DNA of 52,665 bases, filler included, from Catajapyx aquilonaris (GCA_000934665.2; 2 parts of 2 records of this genome joined end to end with filler, not necessarily neighbours in it); one strand, 5' to 3'. Shown: positions 398-48,327, counted from the first letter of the whole stretch. Made by a program: numbers and translations. The notes: generated from the sequence alone by a model not told the origin.

Positions 398-3300
398 CAT
401 CATCATCATCATCCCCATCACCATCACGACATTTCCCTATAAGGGGTAGTCAGCGATGACGGGAGCCACAAGCTAACCAAAAATATGAACTAAATTAAAA
501 CTTGTGAAAATAAACCTATAAACAACCCGTCCCACCCACAACCCCTGCCCATCTCAGACGACAAATTCTCAATATTAAATTTAAATATTACACTATCCAA
601 CGTGGTACTTTGAGAAAACAAGTGTCCCCCACCCCCCTGAAAGAGGAATCAGCAACTGTTAAATTCCTCCAAGTGACTAGAATATTCTCCTCCAAAAGAC
701 CAGAACACCCACAGGCCAGCGAGAAGAACCAGCACACGGAAATCCATACCCGAACTCCAAGTGCTGTGCAGGACAGAGAGAGAGGCAGACACCCTTGCAA
801 GCATGACTACCGGTGTCAACCTATGCATTACTGTGCAAGAGATATTTGCCAAACTTGTAGTTCTGCACAGCACCCCGAGCCCGAGTATGAACCTCCAGAC
901 GCTGACTCCTCCCACCAACCTGCAAACATTACAGCCATTCGTAAGTATTCAATGGACACTGCCATTCCTCACAAACCCGTGAATATCTACCCATTAATTA
1001 ACCTACGCCATTTACACCTGTCCAAACAAACAACCTTAGCCTCAGCCACGTCCATGGTCCTATTGACACATGAACACTTAACACTAGCAACACCCTTAAG
1101 ACACTGACCCACCTGGTCCAACCATGTCTTCCTAGGCCTCCCCTTGCCCCTCTTACCAACTACTCCACCCAAATAAACCTTCTTCACAATCTCCTCCTCC
1201 TTCATCCTCTCCACATGGCCAAACCACCTTAGAGTAGACCTACATACATTATCTTTAACAGTCTCCTTAACATTACACCTCTGCAAAATCTCCTCATTCC
1301 TAATCATATCCAACTTAGTGACCCCACAAACAGCCCGGAGATAACGCATCTCTGTAGCCAAAACCCTACTCTTATGCCTATCTGACCAAACCCACGCTTC
1401 ACTACCATACATAAGTGAAGGAACAATAACGTGAGAATAGACAGACAACCTACAGGCATAAGATAAGTCCTTATTTCTAGAAAACTTACTTGTGGCACCT
1501 ATCACTTTCAACCCAGAACCAACTCTCCTGTCCATCTCCCCATCCATTCTACCATTACTCTCAAGGACACTACCCAGGTATACAAACTGGTTGACCTGCT
1601 CAACCAGCTTTCCTCGTACCTGCAACATACAAGGAGAAACCTGCTGTCCTCTCTCAAATACCAATACCTTAGTCTTATCTACATTAATCCTCATACCCCT
1701 CTTTTCAGAAACATTATCTAACTTGCATAGGATCAACTGTAAATCAGCCTCACTCTACGCCAGAAGGGCAGAATCATCTGCATATAGCAAGTGACTAACT
1801 ATCTCCTCACTAAACTGCACTCCTACACCTTCAACCATAGCTTCCCTTACACATGCATCTAAGTACAAGTTAAGTAACCAGGGAGACATGACACAACCCT
1901 GCTTAACCCCAACACTAATGTTAAACCAGTCAGAGAAACCCCCACTAGTTCTAAAACAAGCTCTACTCTCTTCATACAATGACTTTACAGCCTCCAACAG
2001 GCGACCCTTCACTCCATAGAAACTCAGAACTTCCCACAAACCTTCCGTTAACAGCTAAATACTTTTCTATCACGAGTCTCATACAGAATATCTGATCTAC
2101 ACAACTCTTACCCGACATAAACCCACTGGGTTCAGTGGGGCTTAACGTCGGCCTATTTCTGCCTCTAAGGCTCAACACCGACGCCAGGGGGTGGTCCTCC
2201 TCCTGGAAATTTGGCCATTCTGGGGATCTTTAACGTGCACTCACGCAATGTCACAAGCACACGGGACCGACGGCTTTACTTCCCCTCCGAAGGAAGGCGC
2301 ACTCTCACTTTTCTACCACCCAGTGAAAAGTCACCGACCTCGACCGGGTTCGAACCCACAACCTTGGGACCAGAGGCGAGCGTGCTAACCACTAGTCCAC
2401 CAAGGCCGGCGACATAAACCCACTCTGAATATTCAGTATTCTCTGACTTATCATACACCTTTCCTGGTACACTTAACAAACTAATGCCACGATAATTCTT
2501 GCAGTCACACACATCTCCCTTACCCTTTTACAGAGGTACTATAATAGCATCCCTCCAATCCCTATGAACTACACCATTATCAAAAGAAACCCTACATAAA
2601 TTAGTCAAAAAAGTAACTACATCATCCCCACCACACCTCACCATTTCCAAAGAAATAGCATCAACCCCAGGGGATTTACCTAGTTTAAGTTCTAGAGCAG
2701 CAGCTGCAACTTCCTTCTTACAAATATCCCCACAACAATCATTACTTGGTACATCATCCCCAATTAAGCTTACAGATACATCAACACTAGCCTTATCACT
2801 TGCTGACAGCAAGTCCTTAAAATACTCTTCCCAAAGACCTTTCGCCTCTTCTCCATCCCACAGCATGTCACCCTTCTTATCCTTCACACCCACTACGCTA
2901 ACCCCATGCCCAGTCCTTAACCTCCAGTCAATCAAGGACTTCTGCCCTAATGACCTATTCTCCCAAGTATACTGGTGAATCTGTTTGTGTGGAAACACAG
3001 TATTAGATACATAAAGGCCCCTCTCTACACATAAATCCAATAAACTCACACCGTTTCCATTAACCCTAACATCCCCATAACGACCCAACACTCCCTCATA
3101 CCCCAGGCAAGAGACACTCACCCAAGAGTTAAAATCCCCTGCAAGAATTATCCTGTCATTACCATTGAAACCATCCAACACAGCACTTAAACTATTTCAG
3201 AACCTCTCCTTATCCTCATCCGAAGATGAGTCAACTGGTGCACACACAGCCACACCACAATCCTAGTCTTAACCACCTTCAGACTCACCCACATTATTCT

Positions 3301-3500: not shown

Positions 3501-3661
3501 ATCACACTTATTATGTATCCCCCTTACGTAAACAATGGAGTCTAACCTCTGCATTTTTCAACCTTTTCTTACTGCCTACCCTGGAACTTCGAACATTCCT
3601 AGTACTCAGTACCCAAAGCGAATATTTTGCAAAATCAGCAATGCATATATGCATCATCATA

Positions 3662-3663
3662 AA

Positions 3664-3709
<46 letters not shown>
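3662..3709. repeat. (ATT)n microsatellite
   Basis: Direct inspection; it produces the poly-Y and poly-I ORF artefacts. Confidence 0.95.
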
Positions 3710-3711
<2 letters not shown>

Positions 3712-3784
3712 GGGTTCTACTACCAACAAAAAATTAAAGGACTGTACTCTCAACATTTTGAAAATATGGTTGGAGTTGATTTCA

Positions 3785-6424: not shown

Positions 6425-6899
6425 CTGAAAGTTGAATAGCAAATGTTAACAAAAGAGAATGACAGACACCTGTCATTGCATAACAAAACCACTGACCCAA
6501 ATGCAAAGCCATGTACAGCTCCTCAACTACAACAGCAACCCTCTTTTTCTTTCTCATTTACTTTTCCCCTTGTCTACCTGCAAAGTCCACTTATCTTCCC
6601 ATACAAGGCTGCAAATGTCAATATCTGATATTCGACATACCTACTCTTGATGAGGAAATTGCTGATTAACTCCCCTTACTAGTTTCGATGCCAAATTAAT
6701 GCCTTTTAAATGCTAGTATCTGGCCAAAAAATCGTACGGAATCCCCTCACTTCTGGTGGAAATATTAAACCAGACGCATCTACTCAGTACTTACTCAAAA
6801 AGGCAGCTTCCTCTCGATTGACATGGGCGACCGGAGATTGGGGGAGGAGGGTATCGGATTTCTCAATCTGGCAACGCCATGAGACAAGCGAACATAAAA

Positions 6900-7207
6900 C
6901 CACAATTAAAAACTACTATTTCCGTATCTAATCGTTAATAATTTGTAATAGTTAATTAGCAGACTAATTTTAACGGTTAAATTATTTCACTGATATAATT
7001 ACCACAAATCTGGTATCCTGTAATAATAATTAAAATATTGACAATGTTTTTGATCACGTGTGTTTGACCAATAACTAGCTTAACACTATTTTTAGCCCGT
7101 TAAATATCATTATTGTCGCTCCTCTGCCAAAAAATTTGCAATCATAACTGGGAGGGGGGAGAAAAGCTGCTACGTTTTTGTGGTCAACACTCAACATGCG
7201 ATTAAAA
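6900..7207. promoter_or_regulatory. Probable bidirectional promoter between the DUF4508-like and GON7-like genes
   Basis: Head-to-head arrangement with a minus-strand donor GA|gtaagt at 6795/6794. E-box CACGTG at 7055-7060, Motif-1-like TGGTCAACACT at 7181, and AAAATGGCG at the plus-strand start. Confidence 0.45.
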
Positions 7208-7555
7208 ATGGCGTCCCCAACAGGTATTCGTGTGGTGGTGTCGGACAAAGGCAAGACTACGACTGATTTCACAGTGTCAATTACATCAAACAGAACAACG
7301 ATGGCCCTTAAAAACCTCATGTTTGGTCTACAGTTAGCACGTGAACGGGTGAACGTGGCGCTCACTGATATGATCGAGTCACAATGTGAAACGGGGACCA
7401 AGCAAGCCGACAAGAACGAGGAGATGGGTAAATATTGCATGATCAATTGAATAAAGCCAAGTTGATAACATTTATTATCAAAATCTACAGATGAAGATGA
7501 TGGTGGCGATGGTGACGATGATGCCAAACCACCTGAACGAAAGCGCAAAAAATGA
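7208..7555 (+). CDS. GON7: GON7-like small acidic protein (candidate fifth subunit of KEOPS/EKC), 94 aa
   Basis: Exons 7208-7427 and 7491-7555; the 63-nt GT-AG intron contains an in-frame stop. Product MASPTGIRVVVSDKGKTTTDFTVSITSNRTTMALKNLMFGLQLARERVNVALTDMIESQCETGTKQADKNEEMDEDDGGDGDDDAKPPERKRKK. Architecture: two beta-like segments, an amphipathic helix with VNxxLTxxI, an acidic tract and a basic tail, as in fungal Gon7 and human C14orf142. Confidence 0.65.
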
Positions 7556-7587
7556 TCCAACAGAAGGGTACGTGAATGCCGACACTT

Positions 7588-10500
7588 TTAATCGTCACTT
7601 TCATAACCTTCCCGGTCCCAGTCTTTGTGCTGCATCATGAAGTCATCCCTCATGACCTTCCACTTAGGCTCCTTGGTTGCCTTCTTAACTTCTGCTTGTT
7701 TTGCAGCCACTTTCAACCTTTCTTTAAATTTCTCCATGCCGTGGGTTTTGTATGCACCATCTGTTCGCCTCTGAGATGCACCTGCTTCGTCCAACTGTGA
7801 TTTTAGCTCCTTCTGTTGTGACTTTACTGCATTGAAAAGCTGCACTACACCCCTGTAACGCAGAAATTATTAGATATTCTACCTATATTTTGGCATAATT
7901 TTAGGCATTTCCCTCATAGATCAATGTAGCCACATAATGAGAAAGTCCTTCAGCTGCTAATGGAAATAAATATCATTTCACTTGAGAAATTTTTCATATG
8001 CTACCGAATAATGGTGAGGATTCTTGCTACCAAGCCGTTTCATTTATCTTTTGCCTGCTCCTCTTCAGTCTCCCCTTTTTGTTCGCCAGTAAAATTTTTA
8101 CAGAGATGGTGAAGCATCTGAAGGAATCTGGTTTAAGGTCGTAGCCATAGCTTGGCTGCTTGGAGATTCACAACTTGAACTGCTGCAGGCTTTGAGCAGT
8201 GCCCATGTCAGGACTGCCATATGTGTAGTCAGACACTGACATGCATCTGTCTCCAACAGTTCAAGTGGAGCGTACTTGAGTATTCTCATTATGGTCCAGA
8301 TATTGCAATGAATGACACCCCCACTTGTTTTGCCACCTCCATAAAAATTTTTGCCAGCAAGAGGCTATAGAGAGCAAAATGGAAAGAATAGGCTTAGTGG
8401 CAAGGGTCCTTGAGAACAGCTTACAAAATATACCAGTTTAAGAATGCTTTGATTGACAGCGTTTGTGAGATGTAGCAGGTAAGACCTGGGACATTATGCG
8501 GCATCATGAAGATGGATCACGCTCGTAGAGCTAACTAGCCTATATGCAATTAAGTGAGACTTCTGTGTCTTAAGATGTTGCTCAGATTAAAATATGATTT
8601 AAAAAAGATGTGGTCTACCTCAGGACTCAAATTTTTCGTTCCTTTTTCAAGATAATCACGTCCTTTAAAAAGGTGGTCAATGAGGTAACAGGCACAAAAA
8701 TGCTGTGATGGGAATTTCAACATGAAAGAAGTACTTTGCAGTCATCATAATCTCCTTTTCATGACACAACTAGATCACACTTTTATCAGTCTGTAGTAAG
8801 AATGATGTGAAATATGCCTCCCTGCAAAAAAGGTTAAGTTTGTTATCACCAAAAGCATGCAAATCACATGCTGGTTTGTAGGAATCACTCTGCCAGCTGT
8901 TCTCACTGCTTCACCCTTCCTTCAGGAACCATACAAATGCACAATGCAATAATTACATGTACTAAACTAACTAAAGTGCAATATATTATTAGCTGTAAAA
9001 CTAAGAAAAATCACAAATTTCAACAATAAATGTGTAAGAAGAAACCCAGTCCACAGCAGCCATAAGAAGTGGCATCAGCTGGCATTTTATTTCATGTCAT
9101 TGTGTGCTTGCTAATTCCAGTAATGCCATGGAATTTTTTTGGAGTGCTTTTCACTGTAGCTTTTTTAAATTTAATTTTTTAATTTAAAAAATTAGTGATA
9201 CATTTTGGCTATTAAATAATTTAATAGCCAAAAAGTATGACTAATTTTTTAAATTTCTACGTCAAGCCATGCAGACCATCACAACACATGGATGCACTTT
9301 TTTGAAGTGGTTAGTGCCACAGCCTTCCACCTCTGAGGCCCTGGGTTCGATCCCCAGGTCGGACGGAGGATACTTATGTGGACAGAGTTTCAATGGGTTC
9401 TCTCCGTGTTCATGTCGGTTTTGTCGGGGTTCTGTTTCCTCCCACAATCAAAATCCATCACAGCGCAGGCAATTATTAAAGACGGTTCACGAAAAGATGA
9501 TCCCCTAAGAGACGCAAGGAGGCTTCATGGGGTATCCATAATACAGGGTGTTTCAGAGTCATGGATCAAGCGCGCGCGAGGGGGTGGGGAAAAATCATAG
9601 GTGGCGACAACCCCAGTCAGTTTTATAAAACAAGTAGAAATACGGCAGTAATCAATTTATTTATTACGGCCGTACGGCGTGAAATCACATCCTTTCTGTT
9701 CAAACTGACTGGCGCAGACTGGCAGGTGCACTAGTGGGTTGAACCTGGTTGAACGGCTTTTTAGCCTTGCGGGTTGCACTGAAAAAGACACTCTCCTGCT
9801 ATACTGGCAGGGTACTGTACACACTACTGTACACTACTCTGTACAGTACCCTACCAGTATAAGCATGAGAGCGCCTTTTTCAGTGCAACCCGCAAGGCTA
9901 AAAAGCCGCTCAACCAGGTTCAACCCACTAGTGCACCTGCCAGTCTGCGCCAGTCAGTTCGAACAGAAAGGATGCCGGTATAAAACGAGGTCGACCAGCA
10001 TGCCGGTATAACCTGGGGGGTGGCCGGCATGCCGCAATAGCCGATGTAGATTTATGTAATTTCGATCCTTGCCAAATATTTTGGAATGCTTCTGGTACCA
10101 TACTAAAATAATGTTATAATGAAAATGGGCAAGTGTACAGGCTGTGAGAATATGTCAGTTCTGTTGCACAGTGCATTTAAAAAATGTAGAGTGTATGACC
10201 AATCCCATCGTCAGCATGCTTTGACAGGGGAACCCCCTGCTCTAACATACTGTTTAGATAGAGATTATTGCCAATTGAAAGCAATATATGGTATGGGTAC
10301 CCTATTTGGAAAATGCGCCTTTTCGATAGCCTTTACGTGAATTTCGATTTTCAGGCAAATGTCAAGTTCAGAAAGGATAATGTAACTTATGTGAAAACCT
10401 CACCTTACACCTGCCTACCTCGCCCTATACCGGCATGCCCGTATAGCCACCAGATCATGCATTTCTAAAAACTGGTCGACCTCGGCTACACAGGCATGCC

Positions 10501-13500
10501 GCTTTATGTGAGGTAATACGGTAATTGTTTTGATACCGTTCAAATCACATTTTAAGTTGCATATTTGATTTCCTCTCCCTCATAAACATACCAATCGATA
10601 TACTACGCCCAATATTCAGCATTAAGGTTTGTAACTTTTTTTTTACAGAGAGCGTTCTTGGCAGTCATTACTTGGATTTGACATATTCTATTCTCAGGTA
10701 CAGTGTTGGACATAATTATCTCGAGGCATACTGCTAGCAACATTTTCCGAAGCAGCAGAAGAAGGAATCTTGCTCGCTCGGCTTGCAGTATCCTTATCTT
10801 CGATTCCTTCTTCTGCCGCTTCGGAAGATGTCACTAGCCACCAGTGCCTCGAATGCCTCGATTAATGTCCAACACTGTACTTCCCCAAGTCAGATTTCAG
10901 TAGACTTTTTAATTTGTTTAGTGGAGGTATGAAAGTGGTGAAATCCGTTGAGAAACCATTTGAAAGAATTTTGGTGAACCTGCATTGGATATTTCTGTTT
11001 AATGACCGGACTACTACTCCTAATTCCAATTACTAACTCTGGTCCATGGAAATGTAGTACCAGTAAGAAAAAAGCAAGATTGAGATGACCACATTATTTT
11101 GAGCTCGAATTCCCACCTCAACAATTTTTTGGGCCCATGAATAAAGCAAAAACCATTTTAAATTGCATTGTGCTACATTTTATAACATTTCCAATTCTTA
11201 AGCAAACTCACAAGCACCATGTAGGTGGCTGATCTATTTTTGCATGTTGCCTTTGATAACTTTGTCTTCAAATTGGAGATATGAATTTTTTACCAAGCAA
11301 TCCTATAATACACATGCAGTTGGCGCCAACTACGAATGTGACATGGCTCTGCTGTTCCTGATCATCCCTCCCAAGATGGCGTTACCACGGACAACATGGT
11401 GCATGGGGGGGAAAGAAGAAAGAGAGCGAGAGCGAGAGAATGCAGCTTGTCCTTGAAATTATTTTGTTATTAAGGGCTACCCCTTTAAATAGGGACAAAT
11501 CATGTATGAAGGATACTCATGCAGTAATGATGGCATTAAGTAAATAAACATTTTCATACTTTACATGTTTCCTTTTTTCCTAAAGAACTACTTAATGCAT
11601 GGAAAATGAGAGAACGATCTGACATCATAAAGGTTTCCATGGAAATACCCTCACAGAACAATAGGAGTAAACAGCGTCAACAAAAAGCAACAATGGAAGA
11701 AAGGTTGACGTCAGATCGTTCTCTAGTGTTCCATACATTATGTGGGAAATAATTGATTTAGTTTCTATTTCTAATTTCAACTGTAGTTTCTCATTTCAAA
11801 ACCATACATTGTGCAAAATGTCCTACTCTGAAGGCTGTTTGGACACTACGAGATTTCCTTAAAGGGACACTCCACTCAAATACAAGTTGGGTTCTAAAAA
11901 TCAGGCAAAAAATCCTGATTCCGAGGGTATAAGCAGTTTTTCTTAGAGACGAACGGTAAGGCCAGTGTGAAAGCTGGAATGTGTCGTTCGAAAACCGCGC
12001 GCGGGGCAGGTGGTGACGCCACCAGAGTGGAACCGGGGGGAACTAGACCAGGGACGCCTGGCGCGGCATGGTGTTTACTGAGCACACTATACTTCTCCGG
12101 TTTGCTGCGGGATGGTGTTGAATCGCCCTTCTTAGCAGACAACGTGTGTAGATATATGATTTTCCGTGTTACCGTTGGGCGTAGAAAAAAACTGATTGCA
12201 CATTCGCAATCAGGATTTTTTTTCCCGATTTTTGGGGGCCAACATGTATTTTGAGTGGAGTGTCCCTTTAACATTGTAACAAGACATTTGATTGTTTTGT
12301 TTTGTCTTTATAATTTGAATGAGTCCGATAGAATGCATTCAAAAATTCCTCCCTCTAGTATAGAACCCATGTTCTCGAGAGGGAGTAACAAATTTGATTT
12401 TATTTGAATTCATTCAAAAACTTTCATACCAAAATCATGAAATGATTTACAGACAGTCCCCGACTTTGTAGTGAATCATTCCATCAGTGGGCAGATTAGT
12501 TGCTTCGGCTGAAATTTAATAATGCTTTTCTTGCTATTGTTGGCATTTTACAGTATCGGTTTGTTCTGTCAATTTGTCATACAGACAATTGATTTTTTTT
12601 GCATAAGTCCAGATATATGCATGTCAGAGCTGCATAAGTCTGGAACTGTCTGTACTGGCTAGCCCTGAGAGGGACATGTCGAAAAAGTGTCTTCATATAA
12701 CAAATAAATGTCCCCAACCCACTCTGGTCTGGCATCTTACCTGCCCAAAATTCTGTTAACCTGCATTCTACACAAACCCTGTGTCCTCTCATTACACTTC
12801 TACTTCAGAGTCATGGGAATGAAACATTATTTTTGCACATTCCTAAGGCCCTGGCCACACTAGGTGGAATCTCCGCGACGGAATTTCTGGCGCGGTCCGC
12901 TCAAACACATGGAAGTAAATGGGATTCCGTCGGGATGAGACACACATGACGGTGTTTTCCGTCGTTCCGTCGAACACCAGCAGAAGACAGCAGAAAAAAT
13001 CAGCTCCGTTTTCCACAGGGGACAATAATCCCACTGCAATACATTGATTCCGCCGGGGGAATGCCACAATACCGACGGAAAAAGTGGGTTTGGTGGGCCT
13101 GCACCAGGGGAATTGGTAGCTGAAAGGGCCGCAAGGCAGCAGCACGGTTGACGGAAATTCCGCGTGACAAAACGTTGCAAAATCAAATCGCGCCGGAGAT
13201 TCCGCCTAGTGTGGCCAGGCCCTAAGCCTAATTCCAACTATTTTAAAATTTCTGTCCATGATGGTATGTACCACTTAAACAACATTATGCCAATGAAGAA
13301 TAACATCTCACTATCAGATGTAAAACTTTACAAAATGTCAACTACGCAGGTCACGGGGTCAGTCAATGTATTCTTGAGGAGTTGACATACAGGGAGTTTC
13401 TGAATTCAGCCAACAAACTCGTAGGGGAAATAGAGGGGGCAAAGACAAATACTTTTCACACAGGACCCATGTCCGGAAACGCCATCTACAGGGGGTTAAT

Positions 13501-16278
13501 AGACAAGGAATGGGTACACTCAGACGTGTCAAGCAGGAGGCGCTTGGCAAGCGGACCTTTTAGTTGCTAGATGGCGCGTGGATAGTAAACAATGGAACAA
13601 TTCACCATAACCTGGCAACAACAGAGCCACCTAGCAACTAAAGCCCACTATCTAGGTAGCCTGTGGATAGTAAACAACGGCTGTGTTGCGATATTTCCAT
13701 AAGTGATGCATCCCAGTACACCACATGACTGCTTCCAAATGAATTAATAACTTGAAACATGATCCTAATTAGCTCCAGACCCATCAAAGAGTACCAGAAC
13801 ATGGTCATAATACTTGAGAACATTAATGTGGCACCACTCACTTTGTGGCAATCTTGTTCAAGGTCCTCTCCTTCTCTCGCTCCAGAATGTTTGGTTTTGT
13901 GCGGCCAACGGAATCCCATTCTTTTTGCTGTAATATAATTATAGTTATTAGTGTATGTTTCAACACTTGTAACCATAACCTTAATCAATACAGCACCTTT
14001 AGCTTCTTTTTGGGCTTCTTAGCAGGAACATCTTCAACTTCTTCTCCAGCAAGGCAAGTAGTCCCATCCTCACCAACAACTTCAAACTGCCGTTTCTTTT
14101 GGTTAGGCTGCATTTTTTGTGAGTCACTTTTATTTGACTTTGATAGGATTGGTGCTGCAGATTCATTGCCTCCCCCTCGGAGAATTCTGGCCATGATGGC
14201 AGCCCAGTTTGAATTGGTGTCATTTGAATTTTCTGGCTTCTCATCATTCTCTTCCTTCACTGACACATCTGATACAGAAGAATCCTCTGAGGACCCTGAA
14301 AAATCATTACAAGTATTAGTAAATAAACATGCCCTACTCATAGCAGCTTGGGCTAGATTCATCAAAACTGATCTTGTTATTCCTGATAAATGCCCTTATG
14401 CATGATCACACTTGATTCAAACAGAAAAATTGCCAGATAATATGTAACTAGGCACCAACTTGCCAAAATTAGGCAAAAAATTAGGTACAAGTGCAAAAGT
14501 GAAGAGAGAGAGAGAGAGAGAGAGAGAGACGAGGTCCAGGCAGCAGCATCGAAGCGACATCCGACGGTGAAGTGCAGAAGTACGTGAGTCGCCACCTAGG
14601 AGGTGGTGTCCCGCACCAAAACAAAAAAAATTGGAATTTCGTGGAAAGGCCGCGGTCAGTTTTTTTTTTTTGCGTGTTTTTCAGTTTGACAAAGTTTCCA
14701 AAAAACAGTTTCTTGCAAATATAGAAAACACTGGCAAAATTTTGACACAGCTCCCAAAGCTGTAGGTCGTATAGTGCAGGAGGAGTTGTTGGAACAGTCG
14801 GCTTTTAATAATATAGATGATGTCATATATACACGGACATAGTGTTGATCTCCACAAGCTTCTACGAGGGGTGTTATATAAGTTCGTGGTTTCGCCTAGA
14901 AGGAGAAGCAAATGCGGAAGCTAAACAGCGCCATTAAATCGAGCCACCCTTCAAACCCCTATATCCACCCAATTGACATAGGTGTCAAAGTCCTTGGGTT
15001 CAGAAATAATTCGGATGTGAAAGGGTGCGCAGCATCTTGTGAAGATGGCGAACATCACACATCGCGCGGTCATCCAGTACCTGGTGGCAAAGGGAATGGG
15101 TGCCAAGGACATCTTTGAGGACATGCAGGATACATTGGCTGGCGATGCACCATCCTACAGCATGATCCAGAAGTGGACTGCCCTCTTCAAACACGGCCGA
15201 GACAGCCTAGAAGACGACCCCCGCTCCGGAAGACCCGTGTGTTCCACCACTGAAGAAAATGTGGCCAAAGTGGAGGAACTAGTGATGGGAGACCGAAGAC
15301 TGACTATCAGGTACCTTGCTGAGGTGGTGGGCATCTCAACATTTTCCATCCACACCATACTACATGACCTCCTGCACCTGTGGAAGGTGTCACCACGATG
15401 GGTACCTCGAATGTTGTTGCCAGAACAGAAGGCGGCGCGTCGGGAGATGTAACAATCAAATTTGGACCTGCTGAATGCTGATGCAGAAGGATTTTACGCT
15501 CGTCTGGTCACACAGGATGAAACCTGGGTACCTCATTATGTTCCCGAACATGAAGAAACACCTGCGGGGTCGACTCCATGGGAGTGACGAAGAGGTCAAG
15601 GCAGCTGTGGAGGACGTCTTGGGGGGGTGGGATTCTTCCTTATACCGGAGCGGTTTGGAGAAGTTGCCACGAAGATGGACAAAGTGTATTGACTGGTGTG
15701 GGGACTATGTTGAGAAATAAAATTGTTTCTTTGTCATGTCTTGCGTACGTCTACTTGAAACCACGAACTTATATAACACCCCTCGTATCTCTCAGGTCCT
15801 AAATTTGATATCTGGATCTGAATGAGGCTTTTCTTACATGTATATGATTTCAATCGGTTCCCTCCATATTCATATGAATTTTTCCGGTCCTCTCCCCTTC
15901 CCTCCCGCTATCAAAATCCATCATCAGTGCAGTGATTTAATAAAGTCAGGAATATGAAACGGGTTCCCCTAAAAGGCCGAGTAACCACCTAAAGATAGAG
16001 ATGTTTAAAATAAAAATGTCATGTTCAGGGCGACACGGTAGCAGAGTGGTTAGCGCCGCAGCCTTCCACTCTAAGGTCCCGAGTTTGATCCCCTGGTCAG
16101 ACGGAGGATACTTATGTGGATAGAGTTGCAATGGGTTATCTCCGTGTTCGCGTGGGTTTTCTCGGGGTTCTCCGTTTCCTCCCGCAATCAAAATCCATCA
16201 CAGCAAAGGCAATGATTAAAGACAGTTATTCAAAAGATGATCCCCTAAGAGGACCAAGGAGACCTATCATGGGGTATC

Positions 16279-27535: not shown

Positions 27536-30500
27536 CAACAAGGTCCTGCCAAGTGAAGAAACGGTCTCTTTTGTACTTGGTGTAGTACATGTCCTTAAAG
27601 AACACGTGTATGACCATACGGGTGTTCACACTGTCATGGAAAGTAACATTAACACTGCTGTGGAGCATGCAACAGGGCCAACATGAGCTCTTGTGAAGGT
27701 ATCATTATTCATTACCTGTCTTGAGGATCAGCAAAAGTGAATTGATCTCCAGGCGATATTTTAGCTTCTGACAGCTCAGAGTAGAAGCTTACTGATGAAC
27801 ATGAGGGTTTGCAATGGCATTTCATTGCACTCACATTCTTATTCATCATGCCTGTTATCTCTACATCGGCAGACATGAGAGAGTTGAATGAAGCTGTAAT
27901 GGAAGAGAAGTGTTTTGATAGCATTTTCATACAAATTGCACATGCATAATGCAATATGCCATTATTAATCTTGCATGCAAAGGCTCTAAATAGAGTATAG
28001 TGTCAACATGTACAAGTACAAGTACAAAATGCAAATCAGATTATTTCACCATATCTGTATACAATATTTGATTCATTCAATGTGATCTCTTGCTATGTTA
28101 TACACCTTTTTCCAAACTTGTGGGAGCTGCTGGATTCCTTCACCTGAGTGTTTCCTATTGATATGAGAAAACGTCCTGTATGCTGATTGAAGAGCTCTCG
28201 CATCACATCATGAACGGCACTATCTATCTTGCGATCGTCAAGTGCAGAGGGATTGGGACCATATGGGCTTCCCAAGGGCCCCAATGAGACATTATTTTGC
28301 AGTTTTACCTCATGCAACCTGGATCTCGTTTTAATTTTGCGAATATGCTTTAGACTGTTGTACACCGAGACGTTGACTTTTGATGACTTTTCCACTAAAG
28401 GGCACTTGTTAGAATGGGATTTGTCGACATCTGAGTACGTACCGTCGTGAATACATCTAGCAGGGGTACCGTTGTTTACATTCATGATATGCTATTATGC
28501 CCGGTACTGTACATACTCGCCGGAAAAGTTAAAACGCCATATTGAGCTTGGCAGCAATTTTTTATCAATGTGACGAAAGAGAGAAGATCGTGCTACTTTT
28601 AGCAGAGTGGGAAAAGGTCATAATGAACGTTTACTTGATTTTGGATATCTCCTGCCACCTGTCCACCTTGTGCTATATATTATTAGAAGCTATTCCGTAC
28701 TTGCCCCATTACCGCACTTGCCCCAACTTACCCTAGATCAGTTGTTCCCAAACTATTTTTCTTTTCTTTGTACCCCTGCACATCTAGCAGTTGTACCCCC
28801 GTTCCGACCTGTTACCTGGAAATAGTATGGGAGAGTGCTGTACCATGGAACACTTTTTCAACATTTATTTTTATTTAGTAAAGTTGTTCATGTTTTTAAC
28901 ATATGAAACTGTCCATGTATACAGGGTGATTCTCTCGAATGGAAACCCAAACATTCCTCAATAACTTTTTAACTATGGTATGGTTCCCGATGAAAATGGA
29001 CATGTAGGCCCTACTTACCTTGTATCATGACAAACAAGGTCTGACTAAGGAATTTACCAAAAGTGGTCCCCTCCAGCATCCTGGAATTTTTTAATCCGAG
29101 TGTGCATATTGCCGAAGACTCCTGCAGATTGAAGACGGCGATCCCATCCCTCTCCCACCTGCCCGCGTGCTTGGCGAGAGGGGATCTCAAGGCAACGGTC
29201 CGTTGCCTTGAGATCCCCTCTCGCCAAGCACTTCATTCTTATTGAAGCATAATAATAGGGTTCCCACAAATGCAGAGATTGGACGCCATGGCACGATGTC
29301 TTTCGCGTCCCCCCAAATTAATTGTGTTGCGTGTACCCAGTTTGAAAACCACTGGGCGCTAGATGAATAAATATTCACGAACACCTTGTATAATAATTAT
29401 ATAAATTGTGTACCATTCTCCTATACTCCTAGAGACTTCGACTATGAAAATATGAGAATGAGGATGCGATACTTACTCACGTTCTCAATCAAGCACTTGA
29501 GGTATTTGGACAAGTCTTCTACGGATTTTGCTTCCGCTTGGTTTTCTGAAATTATAGGAAAGCAGTCATGCCACATTGAGTATGTCCGATAAAAAGCACT
29601 AAATATGACCATTATCTGAATGAATTTGATCATATTTAAAGTCCCGAAACAAGGACCTGTAACTCCCACCTACAATAATTATTTATATGCTTATGAGAAA
29701 CTGTACAGTACTGTACATGTATACTAGAAGGTGGATCTTCTTACCGCGGAGGTTTCCATAGTAGTAAGGCACGTACTTGCACATCTCATCCATGGTTCTC
29801 ACCATGCACTCGACAATGCAGTTTTCATACGTGTACAGCCTGTGATAATTGAGCTGTTTCTCGTTCAAAAAGTAGCATTTGCGATTGTCCGGTGTCAGTC
29901 CACGGGTGCGCTTCTCCGTTTCAATACCGGTTGCCGAGACGGAAATGAAGGCCTCTGTACCTACATTGACTGCAGTTCCTTTTCTCAGGACGAAAGGAAA
30001 CTCAGCAGGATGGTGCGCCAATACCAGGACACCTTCAAAGTCGTGGGTGGTGGCGTAGTAATCGGATACCATGGCATCCACCTCAAGGGTTAGACCCATG
30101 TGCACACCGCATCCGTTCACGTGCTTCATCTTGTGTCGAAGCTGCTCCTCGTCCTCTTTTCTGTCAGAATTAATGACCATATGGTAATACTGTACATACT
30201 GTATAATTATGATGTTGAGGAGAATTACCAAATATGAGGTATAAGATGCAAAGTGATCTACTGTATGTTCAAAAATTAAAATTTCTGAGATACGACTTCC
30301 ATCATGCGAGGAAACTTCCAAGCTAGTGACCCTACTAGTAGTCCATTTTAAGTTGTCCGGAAAATATTTTTGTGCAGAATAAAAAAATTAGTTTTTCTTG
30401 TACGTTCCAAAGTGACCTATATTGGCCAAAGAGCGTTTAATACCCGCAGTAATTTTTGAAGTCATCATCTCACTATTTCTTGCTGATAAAAATAGTCCTC

Positions 30501-33338
30501 TGGTGAACACTGATAACATATCCCGCAGTGGGCACCACAAACAGTACGTAAAGCGAAATGGTCGCATCAGAAAATAAGCTCTCCTGAAATATTCCTTCCA
30601 TCTCGAGAAAGATCACTTTGCCTCTCACCTCCTCATATCTTGTTGTTATCGCTTTAGCAGAAGTACATGGAAAGATCACATTCATGAGCTCTCGTGATGG
30701 AGCGTTGTACTGCTATCCGTTATGCAACAGCAACCTTACCGGGCGTGTAGCATAACGTACAGGCGCAAAAAGGCAAAGCGATGTTGAAAAAAAAATGTTG
30801 TTGAATATAGGTTGTCAGTTCATTGGAAATAAGTCCCCTGTCTCCGAAGGGATAAGAAAAAAAGAAAGCTCGCTGCAGCACCATTAGCATAATTATTGTA
30901 GCTAGACATGACGCGAAACCTACAGGGAGTGATGGAAACAAAAGAAAATAAGATATTGTACTATGATTATAGCGCACTTCTCTGCCATATTCTGATTGTC
31001 GGCTTGATTGTAGTTGAAGGAATAGCACAATCCTGTGTCAGTTTTCGTCATTGTTAATATTTCGCTGCAGTTATCTTTCACTTCGCCGAGCCAGTAGCAC
31101 TTTAAGAACATCTTCTCCTTGGAAGGCATAAGCTGCACGTATGACAAGAAAAAATGAGTCAACAGTTCAATATGTTACAAAGACAGAAAAAATATCCTTA
31201 ATAATTCCAGTCCGTCGTTTCTCCATTATTACTATAATAATCCATTGCAACTTTTTAGCGTACAATGTTAACAGAAATAATATTAAAATCTTGCTTGCTA
31301 GCAAAAAACTGTATATTATGTACAAAATAATATTAACTTCACCGGACCTTAATGATAGGCTATTTCACAATATACCACAAAATCTTACCCATTTTCCTTT
31401 CCTTATGTATATCCTTTCTCCATTATCTAGATCCGGAAAGAGGCAGAGCTTTATGCGAAAGGCTGACCACTACTCTTTCAAGTGCACATCTGATTACGAT
31501 TACTCGCAATTAATTTGAGTAGTCATTTCCCGTATAGGGAAACATCGGAAATCATTTTTGTAATTATGTGAAAATACACAACTAAGTGATTACAAGAGTA
31601 TAGACAACCCTTCGGTTTTGAGCTAATTGCCTGTCTGGCGAATATCCGTCGATATCTGTTGTCGTCTGTTAATGACTTATTTGTGAGCCAGTGACTCACA
31701 AGCAAAAGTACATACACTTTGAGTTAAAGGAATCTTCATTACATTCTTAAATGTAAACGGAAATTTTAATTGTCTTATTTACAATCCATAGAGGATGGCA
31801 AAAAACCTTTAAAACTTTTTAGTGCAGCTAAAAGTACACTCTCTATAAAAATGATGGAGATGAGCCATATACGGACGCAGAGGAGCCAATAACTGATGAT
31901 TTCATTGTAAATCCGGTGACGTGTCTACTCCAAGGCGAATATGCACGGATATAATAAAGTTAACGGACATAACAATCACTGACGTCCTGTATCGTTCCAA
32001 TATGAGCTATTACTGTACTCATACAATAAAATCGATTGGATTACGCACTTACTCTCTGCATAATATCCAAAAAGGGTGCTTCCATCTTCTTTTTAATTTC
32101 AGCGAGTTTCCTTATATCATCATCAGTTTCGTTGCTCTGGGACATAAGCAGCGGAAACTCAGCCATAAAGTGCAATGCTGACTTAAAGGCTGTTTCATCA
32201 TTCTGCAATCTGCAACAGATATTATTTTGCTTGCTTCATTTTCCACGTAGTGATGCAGGGATGAGTCTATTCTCGAAAATTCGTACGTACTTTGCATCTC
32301 GCATGAGCTGCTCTGCAGCTATCTTGGAGACTTTGTTGGTGTTGCAGATGGTCACCGCAGGAAAAGGTATGTCCCAAATTGGTTCATTGGTAGATACGAC
32401 TGTTATCATTATTTGGGCCTGGTTGTACTTCTGCAACATGATGGCAATGAAGTAGCAGGCACCGCATAACGATGCAGCCCAGCACACGAACCATATTATC
32501 CTGAAGCAAAAATGATCCAGATCAATGCAGCCTAAATGCCATTTAACTAAAAAAACTTCCATAGCTTTACCAGTAATTTTGAGATACGGTACGAGCAAGA
32601 ATTTTGTGTGGTACAGTTTAAAGTTCAAGTGTGTGTCTGTGTGTGTGTGGGGGGGGGGGGNGTTGTCTAGATCAGTGTCCTCATAATGTGTCACTAAAAA
32701 TTATAACCCGACTAGGGGCAACCCCCCCCCCCCCCCAATAGGTATGTACTACCTAAGAAAAGGGGTAATAAATACATAAAATACATAAAATAAAGTTTAA
32801 ATGTGGCATTTTACGAATTTATCTGATAAACAATTATCTCCCTGTAATCCTTGCTGAACTATTTATACATGGTGATCCAAAATACTGGTTCTATTGTTGT
32901 GCGATTATTTTTGCACTGATCTGCTTATTATTAAGCGGTTACTTTAGCGGTTATGAAAAGTATTAGCTGATACTATTAGGTTGTAGATACATGAAGTACA
33001 TTCGAGGACTAAAATGTTAAAAACAACATAATTATAACTTACAGTATAATCACGTATGTAATGATGATGCTATTGTTGCAGATTATTATTATAGATGATA
33101 ATTACCTCTCAATAGTCGAATTCTCTTGCAAGTAGTGCATTCCATGGAGCGATGTCGTCTTGAGAAAGTCCCGAAGACTATCTTTACACACTGTTTTCAA
33201 GCTGACCTTCTCCCTGTTGGGATTTCTGGCTATATCCACGTCCTGTTTGACTTTGGGAAAATACCCCTGGTTCTGGTAATATGTTAACCAGTTAGAGGAA
33301 TTGCTGATGTTGCCATGATAGTGGCCCTGCTTGGACAT
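27536..33338 (-). CDS. ppk: Pickpocket / DEG-ENaC channel subunit A; eight exons found, TM2 exon not found
   Basis: Exons 33338-33106, 32500-32291, 32209-32053, 31132-30978, 30160-29745, 29545-29477, 27893-27716 and 27630-27536 join in frame (about 504 aa). Motifs TSLHG, TM1, PFPAVTICN, TDTGLCYSFN, YTYENCIVEC, CHCKPSC and HVFFKD. Confidence 0.85.
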
Positions 33339-34186
33339 TTTGCTGTCGGCTTCAAAGAGCGTCGTTGCAGAAGGGTAAGCGTTGTCCTAGGGCGACGGCT
33401 GGAGGTTTTAGATCAAATATTGATAGTCCTGAGCCTTGGGTATTGAGTGGTTGTGTGTGCATGTAATGGATGAGCCTGTTTTGCGTGATGTGATCCTATA
33501 TTTATTCGTGATGTAGGTTGTCATTTCGGTGAAGACAAGGACCACTTCGTTCAAATTTGCATGAAGGGTATAACGATTAATTGGGAGCACCTACTTATAC
33601 ATCGCGTGCAAGTTGATAATTCGTGCCAACCAACAGGACAGACGTGTGATAGCACAATTCTTGCGCAATTTTTCCGATTAATGTTCTTATATAACGTTAC
33701 ATAAAATGGCGTTAAATTTCTTTTTACATTTTATTTGAAGCTGTACATTATAAACATTCTGAGATAGTATTGCTCAGAGTACAGATTTATATAAAGCGAA
33801 ATTTCGTGGCCATACCTGAGTGAATTACCTGAGCTAATCCAGTGTTTACCACTTTGACATTTAACAAACAACTAGGCCTACAACAATAACAACTTAGCTA
33901 GCATATCTAAGGAACTAGTTTCCATGAGAGTCATTAATGAATATTTGAAATCATTTGGTCTCTCGGTGAAGAACCAACATTTTCCCATGGCCATGGTCAT
34001 CGCTGGCAAGGGCAGGCGAGCTGTTCTGATACGTCGATGACAAAGGATCTGACCAATCGACTAGTGAGGCCGTGAGGGGTGACAATGAACTCCGGTCATC
34101 TCGCTCGGTTGGCCAGAACCAGAGAGCCTTAATTACTGTGTACAGTGCACTACAGTTACAAATACAGTATAATGCACCCAAAAAGG

Positions 34187-37100
34187 TCATGGCAAATAAC
34201 CTGTGAAGGTTGGAGGTGCGTAGATATCCGTTCTTACTAAATTACGAGGTATGTCCGGTTCCAAAACGTGAACTTTGTTCCTAAATCTTTGAAATGCAGG
34301 AGCCAGAATGAAGTGATACAATATTTCAATAAAGCTAATAATACTAAAGCCAATGAAAAGTCCAGTGATTCCTCCAAAGTCAGCTGAAATGTAATGGCAT
34401 GTTACCTTAACAAGCATATATTTTTAGCAACATTGGCGATGTTTTCATTACAGGCCTACCTATAACATTGTTCCAAGTGTACCGTAGATCTCTCTTGTAA
34501 CTGATGAACGAAAAGTCCTTGAAGAAGATGCGAAGTCTCACATAATCAAAACTGCAAGAGAAGGTACGGTAATTCATTTACACAGCAGTAGTCTATAGAT
34601 GTCGCGAATATTGTCACTTATTACGCCAGTATTACGCGATGTCTAGTCCAAGATTACAGCAGATGTTTGATTGTTATGGTAACTTCTCGGAAGCCTCCTT
34701 CGTGATTGGTTGAAACTACAAGTTACCGCCATAACTTCCATTGCTATATATCTTGCAGTAGACACCCCGTAGAATTGGTTCGGCCTATACGCGTAAAATT
34801 CAATGTCGCTTTTTGCGTGTGAACAGATTCAACATGACCGCAACTAAACAATAATGCGTTTGAGCTTGTAGAATGTTACCTTGACGAGTTGTATTTTAAA
34901 TTTATTCCTCTATGATGCTTGTGTTCCGGATCACCCTTGTATTCTCCTAATGATATTTCAGGAATATATGATATCGTTCTGCAGTAGAGAGGGCACCGGC
35001 ATTCCAATCCTTCTGCAGATATGTTGAAATCAGTCATCATATCTGTCCCTCTCACTGTTGTAAAGTGATCTGTAATGTGCACATTGTAAATTGGCGATTG
35101 ACTATGAAAGAAATTTTTTAAATATTCAAACACTACAATCCAGAAACAAAGCACGTTTGCCATATTACACAAACTAACTAGGACAATATTCATTACAGAC
35201 ACATTATACAGTTGCATGTAAACCGAACTCAGCAACAAGCATAAAATTGAGGATACCTTGTGTAACAGAAATTATTGTTGAAGAGTTCGACTATTTTGGC
35301 AAATCCTGATTAAATGCTGTACTCACATTCATGCTCCGCAAGACAAAAGAGCTGGTCAAAGTTGCATATATTGAAAGTATGTCCTGAAAATGGAAAAGAG
35401 TGGGCTATTTTATAAAGCAAGTCCTACTACCTCCATTAGACAGCCTATATTTTCCGCTTATTGTTTGAACACTTGACTTACTGGCAAAGTTAAGCTGGAA
35501 AGGAACGCATCCACAAGTCCTGTTCATTTCCGTGATGCGACATTCCAGAATGCAATTATCGTATGTGTACTTTTTATGAAACTGCAATTTCACGTCATCC
35601 TCCAAAGCGCATTGTCGGTTTTTTTGTGACATTTGTTCAACTTCTGTCACTGGGAATGTTTGCATGGCTGACATTCCGAAGAGTACGTACTTTCCTGGCG
35701 GCACAGGAATTCCTCGCTCTGCTACCAAAGGGAAGGTGTACGGATTATGAACCAGAACCTGTAAGAGCATGTAGCATAATATTATCCGTCTGCAGCGAAG
35801 TCAATGTACTAGTACAGTGAACTACCTTAAATCCGTAGTAGTTCTCACTGCTGAAAACGTAGTTGCTACTGTTTAATTTGAGCAGTACTGCCAGCCCAAA
35901 TGAGGATCCAGCTGAGCCTACATGCCAAACCTTTTTAGCAGACATCTTTAAGAATGGGGCCAAAATTGATGCATTTTGTCCTTCTCCGGGTCTACAAATG
36001 AGCCAAAATAATATTACCAAACTGGAAACCACAAAATTATAAAACATCTGAGGAATATCAGTCGGATATCTTGGTTACCAGTTTTGTCAAATTCGACTTC
36101 ATTGAAGAGCTTACAACACATGAAAGAAGACTCACATGTAAAATCCTCGCCGATTAAATGAAAAGCAATATCCCATGTCGGTAGGGGCCACTTGGAACAT
36201 TGTGCTGCAATCTTGTTCTAATCCCAACCAAGAGCACTTTATAAATGCTGTAGTGATACTCGGCATTATCTATGATTGAAAAATGGACCATACTTGAGAA
36301 ATAACCATTGTTCTTATTATACAGGGTGTGCATGAACTCCACCGCCAAACGTAGTGGAGTGGTAAGGGACTTTGTGAAATAATGAACTTTGCCAGAGTTC
36401 AATGGTTTGAATTTTTTTTTCCAGGCCTGAAAGGGAAGTATGATACAGTGACAAGCATATGAAGACCTCTGGTGCACACTTTCACCGACACGTGACGTCT
36501 GGCTTACCAGAATTGATTTGGCTGGGCCTCTCTGCCATATGGCTAGAGTTGCCGGTGGAGTTCATTAACACCCTGCATAGGGTGTCGCAAAAGTCATCTC
36601 GTATCCGTTTCGGTGGAAATCTCGCCTCCGTAAACAAGTTGTCTAAGAGTTATTCAGACTGTACACTATGCTATATTCAACCAGGATTCCAACATGACTC
36701 GGCAGGCTATGGCTCTGAGCTAGCTTTTGGGACACCAGATAGAGTTTACCTTTTCCATTCCTTCTATCACACTATGAGAATAATTCTCATGAAGTCCTCT
36801 GAGCTCCTCTTGAAAACTCTCGTTTAGAGTTTTTACCAAATTCATAATGTTCACTCTGTTCATTGTTATTGCGGCGTCAGAAAACATCTCCATTGTTTTA
36901 TTCTCGGACAAGTCCTTGTATATTCTGAAAACGGAATGCAGTACTTCTATTATTTCGATTCAACTGGTTTTTCGTCAATATTTAAAATCATTTTTCTTAC
37001 GACTTCTTGCTTTCTATGTACTCCATGAGCTTATCGAGCTCGATCCTATTTGTCGAGCATATTGTGACTGCAGGAAATGGTACTTTCCATAACTCGCGAT

Positions 37101-37486
37101 GAGTGTTGTACACATCGGTTAGTACTTGGTCGGGATAATTCGATTGCATATAACACACCAAGCTGATAAGGGCTATTAATATACCTAAGCAAGACAGGAC
37201 CCAAAAATTTCTGAAACATACGTAGTTATTATTTTCTTGATATGAGATTGGAAGTAGGAAAATAATATAATTATACACAGTATACTAACTTTTCTTGTGG
37301 CGTCCCTCGATGGAGGTACTTAACACCATGGAGTGTTGAAGTGTTTAGAAAGTTATCCAAATGACTAACAACTTTGCGTTCTGTACGTTTTGGGATTTGA
37401 CCAGTACTTCGATTGAGATTAACACCATTTTGATGCACCCAGCCCGATGCCATGTGCCAGATAGGTCTATTGGCTTCTGGCTTCAT
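34187..37486 (-). CDS. ppk: Pickpocket / DEG-ENaC channel subunit B, intact, about 564 aa, ten exons
   Basis: Exons 37486-37290, 37210-37001, 36924-36750, 36269-36136, 35991-35826, 35758-35482, 35383-35327, 35069-34880, 34551-34460 and 34383-34187, all phases compatible. Motifs STLHG, PFPAVTIC, GYCFSFN and ADFGGITGLFIGFS. An upstream ATG at 37522 is possible. Confidence 0.93.
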
Positions 37487-38188
37487 TTTGCGGGCTTTTT
37501 CTACATGCACAGCACGCAACATATTCGCAGTGGCGTGGCATGAAGCGTCCATATTCATACGAACGAAAGTGTTACAGAGGTAGGCTAATGTGATCATTTG
37601 CAACATTTCAGATCCCAGATGTATTGCGCATGACATGCTCTGCAAATTCTCACCTCTGATACAGATGCGAATGTCATATATTATTTATACACATGCCTGC
37701 TCATACATGCTCATCTGAAACTTTATTTACCATGCACGCAGCACAGAGCATGATGAAATGTTTGTCTCTTGGGTGACATACTACATTTGGACAGCAAATC
37801 GACCTTGTAATAAATAAATATTCTTTCATGCGAAGGTGCCTCTATTATTGATATTTATCGTAGCATAAATAATTGAAGACATGAAATGCAGAACCATCAG
37901 AATGGCGTTGAAAATGGTTTTGAGATATGGAGGTTAGAAGTTTCAAAATTTCATTGTGCAATGTGGGGTATTCCTTTTGTGCATTTTCTCTAGGAGGCTG
38001 TAATTTCTCTGGTGGCAGAAAACTTACTTCACTAGCAGAAGTATGTGTCAAGGACTAAGTGATTCGATTACGCAATGCCTATCTCGGTTTCGATCTTTGA
38101 CAACTACAGTAGTTATACTGCAAAATAATGAAGGCTTCAATCATTGTTGATATGCAATATAGAATGCACAATATAATTATTATGAAGA

Positions 38189-38192
<4 letters not shown>

Positions 38193-38254
<62 letters not shown>
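38193..38254. repeat. (TC)n microsatellite
   Basis: Direct inspection. A shorter (GA)n lies near 14504-14529. Confidence 0.95.
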
Positions 38255-38257
<3 letters not shown>

Positions 38258-38916
38258 GGGATTGGAATGTGGAATGAGATAGACGCTTTTATATAAGGAC
38301 GGTGGGCCACTCCAGGGTATTGTGCCATATGACTATACGTATTCCCAGTCAGTTGAATCCGTTAAACGGGTTAAGGCCTGCGCAGGGGTCTCGTGGGGAG
38401 TATATCTGGCTCCTACCTCTACCTACCTGTAACATGCGAGATAAAAGAACAGTGGTATAGATGAGAACTTGTACGGATTTTTCAAATATTTCACCTGGAC
38501 TTATTAGTGACCCTGTTTGCGTACAATAGACTACGGTATCTCACTTCTACGAGTATTAGAGTGGATCTCGCTTCTAGTTCGGATGTAGGCTATACGTACG
38601 TTATGTTTTCTAAAATATATTTCAAAATAGATGATTCCATTTATACCCATACCTCTTTCCACTAAGAGTATGTAGCAAATGTACAGTCGTGTACCGTACA
38701 CTACAGGCTGTGAAAGTAAAGTAATAAGTCACAGCACTTGGGTGAACAATCATATTCTTATTATTACTATGAACTGTATTCCCTAAATCACAATGTTAAC
38801 GTTACCATCTCAACAACTGTATACTTAGGTTAATTCGACATAGGCCTACTTAGTCTTTTGCATGCATAATGTGTAGATAAATAGTCCTTGTCAACTGGAA
38901 ATTTTTGTCCCCCAGC

Positions 38917-44900: not shown

Positions 44901-45474
44901 CAATTGCTGAATGCTCCAGTTATGTGCAGCTACATTTCAGGATTCTGAAAAATCTATTCAAATATATTTTTCACACATGGCAGATTAAGTCTACCAACTG
45001 CTGAAGAAATATCGGTAAGTTCTTACGACTTTGTGGCTGCTATGTAGGCTTCCAATTTATCCAACTCAATCCTATTTGCAGGGCAAATTGTAACTGCCGG
45101 AAATGGCACGTTCCATATTTCATTATGAGTGTTATACACATCAGTGAGTATTTTATCTGGATAATTCAGTTGCATGTAGCACACCATACTGATAAGGCAC
45201 AATAATGTAATGATGCATGAGAGAGTCCAAAATTTTCTGAAATATGGATTGAAAAACTTCATCTAATATAATTATAGCAGAGATGGAAAAGGACTGTAAG
45301 TTATACGTACTTCTCCGTAGATGTTCCTTGACGCAGGTATTTTGCCCCGTGAAGAGATGATTTTTTCAAGAAATTATCACAGTAGCCCGTAAATCCGGTA
45401 TTAACGTTGACTTGTCTATTTTCTATGACATTATCTGTCACGTTTTGATTAGGCATAGCGTCTTGATTAACCAT
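38917..45474 (-). CDS. ppk: Pickpocket / DEG-ENaC channel subunit C, intact, about 539 aa, ten exons
   Basis: Exons 45474-45311, 45236-45027, 44841-44664, 44581-44448, 44161-43996, 43927-43651, 43415-43359, 41580-41394, 40619-40528 and 39071-38917. Same intron positions as subunit B. Motifs SSLHG, PFPAVTIC and ADFGGITGLFIGFS. Confidence 0.93.
40917..41199. mobile_element. piggyBac-type MITE
   Basis: TTAA|cacttaactggtgacctg ... caggtcactagttaagga|TTAA. An extra inner right-end copy lies near 41170. Confidence 0.65.
41871..43256. mobile_element. Sola1-like non-autonomous DNA transposon
   Basis: aaat|gaagaatggaaatgataaagggcctaagtgcaa ... ttgcacttaggcccgttatcatttccactcttc|aaat. AWWT-type 4-bp TSD. 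Confidence 0.8.
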
Positions 45475-45885: not shown

Positions 45886-46065
45886 GACTGTACTTCGGTA
45901 CCGACACCTGGCTAGCTCATGGGTCCAAATACTGGGTTCAGTAAATGATACTCGGACTTGTGATAACAACACCACGTCTATTGCTCTGAGGTTACAGCCA
46001 AGCAGGAGAGGAGCATAAGAGTAAGACTGTAAGAGGGAGGATCTCAGCAGCATCGCTACTTATAT
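45886..46065. repeat. Direct repeat copy 1 (copy 2 at 47914-48329, split by a SINE)
   Basis: cttcggtaccgacacctggctagctcatggg...gagcataagagtaaga...ctcagcagcatcgct occurs twice with very few differences. Confidence 0.9.
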
Positions 46066-46375: not shown

Positions 46376-46465
46376 ACCTAGTATATCCTAACATGACCTA
46401 ACCTGACCTAACCTAACATAACCTAACCTAACATACCTAACCTACCCTACCCTAACTAACCTAGG
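46376..46465 (-). repeat. Degenerate (CCTAA)n = (TTAGG)n array
   Basis: acctaacctgacctaacctaacataacctaacctaacatacctaacc... Confidence 0.8.
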
Positions 46466-48293: not shown

Positions 48294-48327
48294 AAGAGGG
48301 AAGAGCTCAGCAGCATCGCTCCTTATA

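Follow-up and report, generated by a model that had tools for sequence, protein, structure and literature searches.

The stretch of DNA analysed here, referred to as the window, comprises 52,665 nt (filler included) from two joined records of the Catajapyx aquilonaris genome (GCA_000934665.2). At the locus of interest a small candidate gene with two coding exons is located on the + strand, and a gene resembling RRP15 runs towards it on the opposite strand. The features of this locus, including those deduced from contigs of a public run (X1), are the following:

7196..7198, + strand: alternative in-frame ATG, 12 nt upstream of the ATG at 7208, which could add four residues

7208..7427, + strand: exon 1, coding (73 residues and the first base of codon 74)

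7428..7490, + strand: intron of 63 nt with GT..AG ends, containing an in-frame TGA (7448-7450) and an AATAAA at 7450

7491..7555, + strand: exon 2, coding (last two bases of codon 74, 20 codons and the TGA stop)

7556..7933, + strand: putative 3' UTR, deduced from X1 contigs at 7490-7852 and 7823-7933; the next AATAAA on the + strand is at 7965

7588..7852, - strand: last coding exon of the RRP15-like gene (Pfam Rrp15p, 3.1e-07), joined to 13842 in X1

The remaining genes and elements that were recognized in the window are:

990-3196, - strand: broken reverse-transcriptase ORFs of LINE type in several frames (RVT_1, 3.2e-06)

15021-15449, + strand: remnant of the N-terminus of a Mos1/mariner-type transposase (HTH_48, HTH_32), just upstream of the RRP15-like gene

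29686-45262, - strand: three tandem genes for amiloride-sensitive sodium channels (ASC, pickpocket-like), with exon ORFs matching PF00858 down to 1.8e-22

49219-50070, - strand: PIF1-like helicase, an ORF of 284 codons (4.7e-35)

A homolog search with a sodium-channel exon gave 56 candidates, none of which reached E <= 1e-8. None of these other genes and elements of the window is related to KEOPS, the complex to which the candidate gene had been assigned.

The candidate gene is a two-exon ORF which runs from the ATG at 7208 to the stop codon TGA at 7553-7555. Its spliced coding sequence of 220 + 65 = 285 nt encodes 94 aa followed by a single terminal stop, and the predicted product has a mass of 10.3 kDa and a pI of 4.94. 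The first exon encodes a predicted beta-hairpin, an amphipathic helix and the beginning of a polar/acidic segment; the second encodes an acidic tract followed by a basic K/R cluster. The start codon is embedded in the A-rich context AAAA ATG G, and the nearest upstream in-frame stop is found at 7145-7147. The intron, with the donor tgg/GTAAAT and the acceptor tctacAG/atg, is AT-rich, with a GC content of 0.25 compared to 0.48 in the exons. If it is retained, the frame ends at codon 81 with the TGA at 7448-7450, which matches the unspliced ORF of 84 aa at 7196..7450. In this respect the original prediction of a 94-aa ORF in two exons, separated by a 63-nt intron with an in-frame TGA, is borne out by the sequence, on which the translations and a script agree. 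A palindromic E-box (CACGTG) is present at 7055-7060, about 150 bp upstream of the candidate ATG. In some animals such boxes are a mark of genes related to growth and translation, but a single hexamer of this type within 200 bp is no rare chance event.

Evidence for splicing was obtained from the public run X1, whose sequence type is not on record and which contains 55% of the words sampled from the window. Four of its contigs could be placed on positions 6500-8500, each with a likeness of at least 99%. A contig of 540 nt with a depth of 29.8 matches positions 7250-7426 and then 7490-7852 without a single differing letter. Between the two parts, 63 nt with GT..AG ends are left out, and the cut can be moved by +1, which yields exactly the 7427/7491 junction that had been proposed for verification in RNA-derived data. 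The candidate intron is covered by none of the four contigs placed on 6500-8500. A loose end at 7852 is followed by 30 letters which match the window solely at 13842-13871. A second intron of about 6 kb (7853-13841), belonging to the neighboring minus-strand gene and with AG/GT ends on that strand, is thereby removed. Because two canonical spliced joints are seen, the X1 contigs must be derived from cDNA, and since GT..AG reads correctly on the + strand only, the spliced candidate RNA is a transcript of the + strand. The contigs hold no 5' ends, no expression level and no direct information on the strand, and their coverage begins 42 coding bases into the coding sequence.

For the RRP15-like gene, three RRP15-like homologs from a beetle, a bee and an annelid (38-41% identity) were the best matches. 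This gene and the candidate converge, with 32 bp between their stop codons, and both are spanned by one cDNA contig, from which it follows that their 3' ends overlap; the putative 3' UTR of the candidate would thus traverse the last exon of the RRP15-like gene. An AATAAA for the minus-strand gene (TTTATT at 7471-7476 on the + strand) sits within the candidate intron, and the + strand AATAAA at 7965 falls within the intron of the RRP15-like gene.

Such an arrangement raises the question whether the locus gives rise to a spliced non-coding or antisense-type transcript over the 3' end of the RRP15-like gene, in which the ORF occurs by chance. The overlap itself, with a single contig spanning both genes, and the missing record of X1 as RNA are compatible with this explanation, as is the outcome of the word search and of phmmer, neither of which returned a protein homolog. 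Moreover, the length of the ORF is unremarkable, as the window contains 68 ATG-initiated ORFs of at least 73 codons. Other properties of the locus are those of a coding sequence. Splicing takes out the sole in-frame stop and preserves the frame, and the start codon context is A-rich. A codon-usage log-ratio, trained on 1,205 codons from Pfam-confirmed exons within the window, amounted to +0.196 in frame and to -0.197 and -0.627 in the two alternative frames; of 59 control ORFs (mean 0.026, sd 0.085) only one reached the value of the candidate. Structure prediction with AF2 without an alignment gave a mean pLDDT of 84.0 and a pTM of 0.50 for the candidate, as opposed to 50.1 and 0.30 for an antisense ORF of 73 codons, which served as a single control. 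Finally, the 'recognition' value in the ESM Atlas was 3238, above the level of 2300 that is reached by 91% of proteins of known families and by 9% of shuffled proteins. Taken together, the locus very probably represents a real, small protein-coding gene, and we consider a non-coding transcript with a fortuitous ORF to be unlikely.

On the minus strand, a stop-to-stop frame of 170 codons (7222-7587) is located antisense to the candidate. It has no family match and a pLDDT of 50, and probably just mirrors the gene on the + strand.

KEOPS is the complex responsible for t6A, a tRNA modification that is universal, and mutations in each of its five human subunits are a cause of Galloway-Mowat syndrome. 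The original prediction regarded the candidate as a diverged insect ortholog of GON7 (C14orf142 in human, Gon7 in fungi), the fifth KEOPS subunit, with two beta-strands, a helix, an acidic tract and a basic tail as its layout. This layout is indeed present. AF2 predicts two strands (residues 5-13 and 17-25) followed by a helix (residues 28-71); aspartate and glutamate make up 12 of the 28 residues from 58 to 85, and lysine and arginine six of the nine residues from 86 to 94.

All searches for homologs and folds were carried out with those 73 of the 94 residues that are encoded by exon 1 and with variants of their boundaries. A phmmer search of 1.84 billion protein representatives returned no relative of the candidate at E <= 0.001. 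Its sole match, a repeat protein of 567 aa, was judged to be spurious. A word-index search with exon 1 yielded no word-sharing candidate of 40-128 aa, none of 340 pattern matches in metagenome contigs was confirmed as a relative, and the whole window had no match in Rfam. As the species' own proteins were absent from the matches in the protein collection, the term "hidden" used for this gene may just mean that the genome is unannotated there.

The failure of sequence searches is to be expected even for a true ortholog, since the human and the yeast protein are only 19% identical, six of 45 ordered residues being conserved, yet bind in a similar manner (PMC6722078). In line with this, the link between the human and the yeast protein was made by proteomics and structure and not by sequence (PMC5314774; PMC6722078). 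Comparison of folds with the AF2 model of the candidate did not return a GON7 or Gon7 chain (6GWJ, 4WXA) either, and the matches are dominated by the straight helix of 44 residues. Foldseek found no match in the PDB at E <= 0.001, with the ribosomal protein eS6 in the top rows, and VIA-align against 48,161 representatives, in a wide and in a second-look search, gave matches to long helices with Z <= 4.7. No pairwise match to a GON7 chain was found among PDB sequences.

With this outcome, the candidate could also be a real, lineage-restricted small acidic nuclear protein without any relation to KEOPS, whose resemblance to GON7 reflects a common style of hairpin, helix, acidic tail and basic end. 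The empty searches of 1.84 billion representatives (E <= 0.001), of the word index and of the metagenome contigs are what such a protein would produce. What bears on the choice between this explanation and a GON7-type subunit are the profile and language-model searches. Three of 24,736 Pfam families matched the candidate at E <= 10, in a search in which few matches above roughly 0.1 pass the HMMER filters:

PF15387 (DUF4611, the family of human GON7/C14orf142): E 0.11, 13.1 bits with a cut-off of 32.1; residues 18-72 aligned to profile positions 12-64 of 96

PF21262 (RRP40_S1): E 0.11, 12.9 bits with a cut-off of 27.1; residues 10-68 aligned to profile positions 10-67 of 83

TTc_toxin_rep (toxin repeat): E 0.2, 12.0 bits with a cut-off of 29; residues 18-31 aligned to profile positions 5-18 of 45

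PF15387 was ranked first at 13.1 bits, which is below its curated threshold of 32.1 bits, and is tied with the unrelated family RRP40_S1; with the upstream start at 7196 the latter outranks it. The match to PF15387 was kept in three of four boundary variants with 12.9-13.3 bits (changed start, read-through into the intron, residues 1-17 removed). PF15387 was not among the matches for residues 1-57, the part expected to fold, which indicates that the score derives in part from the polar, low-complexity segment of residues 58-72/73. None of 66 control ORFs of equal length matched PF15387, and about seven non-genic ORFs among these controls obtained some family at E <= 0.15; for this reason the Pfam score taken alone is at chance level. 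The controls also include spurious matches to membrane-protein families, caused by a trinucleotide repeat at 3535-3756 which encodes about 20 isoleucines or tyrosines, depending on the frame. The alignment to PF15387 has an offset of 6-8, and with this offset the predicted second strand and the helix of the candidate are in register with human GON7. The fungal family PF08738 was absent from the families at E <= 10. Accordingly, of the proposed comparison with profiles of C14orf142 and Gon7, the first half gave a joint-top match far below its cut-off and the second half gave nothing at E <= 10.

That RRP40_S1 scores equally well, and that the sole match in the PDB sequence search was 6dgb_A, an IS607 family transposase, suggests a further explanation, in which the candidate is a remnant or a domesticated piece of another family, either an IS607-type serine recombinase or an S1 domain of the RRP40 type. 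The match to 6dgb_A covers residues 3-54 with E 0.34 in phmmer and E 0.079 with a profile that was built from the candidate alone with its two possible starts; the RRP40_S1 scores were 12.7-12.9 bits. Both matches are at chance level for their libraries. The PDB match spans only 50 residues and no Pfam resolvase family was matched. RRP40_S1, for its part, stays below its threshold of 27.1 bits and vanishes in two of the four variants, and an S1 domain is an all-beta barrel, in contrast to the helix predicted for residues 28-71. An origin from one of these two families is highly improbable.

A search of different kind, with language-model features against the 7.7 million clusters of the ESM Atlas, led to the following matches:

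Rank 1: unnamed cluster of 91 aa, mostly Ascomycota, score 0.85

Rank 2: 'GON7 isoform X2', with PF15387 in 100% of the members, score 0.82

Rank 3: 'GON7', with PF08738 in 74% of the members, score 0.80

Rank 6: 'Gon7 family', with PF15387 in 22% and PF08738 in 19% of the members, score 0.78

Clusters named GON7 or Gon7 thus account for three of the four rows among the matches listed. Scores below 0.9, as all of these are, count as leads only in the Atlas, and one third of shuffled proteins have a first match of at least 0.8. In addition, the rule of the Atlas for four matches of one family among the top ten, with the verdict "probably wrong", counts against GON7, and it may be that PF15387 and PF08738 are counted as separate families by this rule. 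When the search was restricted to residues 1-58 and to named clusters, the one match listed was a cluster of unnamed family with a score of 0.76.

Homology to GON7 is hence suggested, yet unproven, by two sources that support it weakly. Each individual GON7 score is at chance level, but the candidate matches GON7 in size, in predicted secondary structure and in the distribution of charges, and two weak signals that differ in kind, though they are not fully independent, agree on a family that had been named in advance. It is this convergence of a profile HMM and of language-model features on one pre-named family, among 24,736 families and 7.7 million clusters, that speaks against a lineage-restricted protein, together with the absence of PF15387 from all 66 controls and the fit of the predicted secondary structure to the register of human GON7. 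On the other side of the balance, all family matches have chance-level scores and the PF15387 match needs the polar segment of residues 58-72, both of which favor an unrelated protein. We regard a lineage-restricted protein as the less likely alternative, and assign a probability of about 0.5 to the candidate being a GON7-type fifth subunit of KEOPS. The orthology claimed by the original prediction thus finds weak support in PF15387 as the joint-best Pfam family, in the GON7 clusters of the Atlas and in the layout; the scores below the cut-offs and the lack of a homolog in the sequence searches count against it, and the fold matches, dominated by the long helix, add no support.

Human GON7, which has been crystallized with LAGE3 and OSGEP (6GWJ), consists of 100 aa compared to 94 aa in the candidate. 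It possesses a beta-hairpin (Met1-Ser20) followed by a helix (Gly25-Pro50; PMC6722078), and AF2 predicts the same order of elements for the candidate, with the hairpin at residues 5-25 and the helix from residue 28 (pLDDT 84). The strands of the candidate begin about five residues later than those of human GON7. In descriptions of GON7 orthologs, the N-terminal hairpin and helix are structured, and the C-terminal half is acidic and contains few hydrophobic residues (PMC8565320; PMC6722078). The C-terminal half of the candidate is likewise acidic and hydrophobic-poor, as it is in human GON7. By NMR or SAXS, GON7 alone was found to be intrinsically disordered (PMC5314774; PMC6722078). The candidate, in contrast, is confidently folded in the AF2 model. 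For proteins which are disordered on their own, AF2 often draws the bound state.

Yeast Gon7 (PF08738), known from the structure of the Gon7-Pcc1 complex (4WXA), shares the layout of hairpin and helix, and the role proposed here, with the candidate and is about 20 residues longer than human GON7 (PMC6722078). A different solution is represented by archaeal Pcc2, the fifth KEOPS subunit of Archaea, which is a paralog of Pcc1 from within its family and has its complete fold, whereas the candidate is predicted to consist of a hairpin and a helix; the Pcc1 family PF09341 was absent from the Pfam families matching the candidate at E <= 10. The proposed job of Pcc2 is to cap the dimer surface of Pcc1 and thereby to prevent dimerization of KEOPS (PMC9889334), and the job proposed here for the candidate would be the same. 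The supplement of that study contains matches for Pcc1/Pcc2 and no GON7 taxa.

Transferred from the human and yeast structures 6GWJ and 4WXA, a mode of action can be proposed for the candidate as a GON7-type subunit. It would most likely be a nuclear protein of 94 residues and the fifth subunit of the t6A-making KEOPS complex. The N-terminal beta-hairpin (approximately residues 5-25) would add edge-on to the sheet of Pcc1/LAGE3 to form a sheet of five strands, and the amphipathic helix starting at residue 28 would pack antiparallel to the C-terminal helix of Pcc1. In this way the surface used for Pcc1 homodimerization would be capped, resulting in a linear KEOPS of 1:1:1:1:1 stoichiometry rather than a dimer of tetramers. 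The acidic tail would remain disordered, and the terminal K/R cluster may act as a nuclear import signal, an assignment of our own. A modelling study suggests a position of the acidic tail of GON7 near the anticodon arm of the tRNA (PMC13377070). For the candidate itself, both binding to Pcc1 and an effect on t6A are inferred only.

In publications from 2013 to 2026, the KEOPS complex of Drosophila is given as Kae1, Bud32 and Pcc1 only, Gon7/GON7 is reported from certain fungi and metazoans only, and most eukaryotic KEOPS complexes are described as four-subunit dimers (PMC4049849; PMC8565320; PMC9654439; PMC13377070). The statement that GON7 has been considered unidentifiable in Drosophila is consistent with these lists of subunits. 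The literature searched contains no paper on a GON7 from an arthropod or insect, and arthropods may already be included in the ortholog group ENOG503BUEY of eggNOG or in Figure 1 of PMC5314774. The former comprises 60 metazoan sequences and is named in PMC9889334. Tentatively, and with odds that we place slightly short of even, the candidate would be the first GON7 ortholog recognized in an arthropod. The subunit would then be ancestral to animals, kept in at least a part of the Ecdysozoa, and overlooked as a fast-evolving protein that is too small for gene callers; in this sense the gene indicates that very small, fast-evolving subunits can escape annotation.

If this holds true, the sequence provides a seed, and its position beside RRP15 a possible synteny anchor, for finding the missing subunit in insects including Drosophila. 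The picture of KEOPS would be altered for a major animal phylum, with consequences for the question whether the five-subunit complex is ancestral, and it could be tested directly whether KEOPS forms a monomeric pentamer or a dimeric tetramer in arthropods. The interest of the finding, once confirmed, would be real but specialist.

Elsewhere in the window, the first 4 kb show a strong GC skew of -0.37 to -0.38, and a GC-rich block is present at 46000-50000, with a GC content of 0.51-0.55 compared to about 0.40 elsewhere. The latter contains the PIF1-like ORF, which probably belongs to a Helitron-type element.
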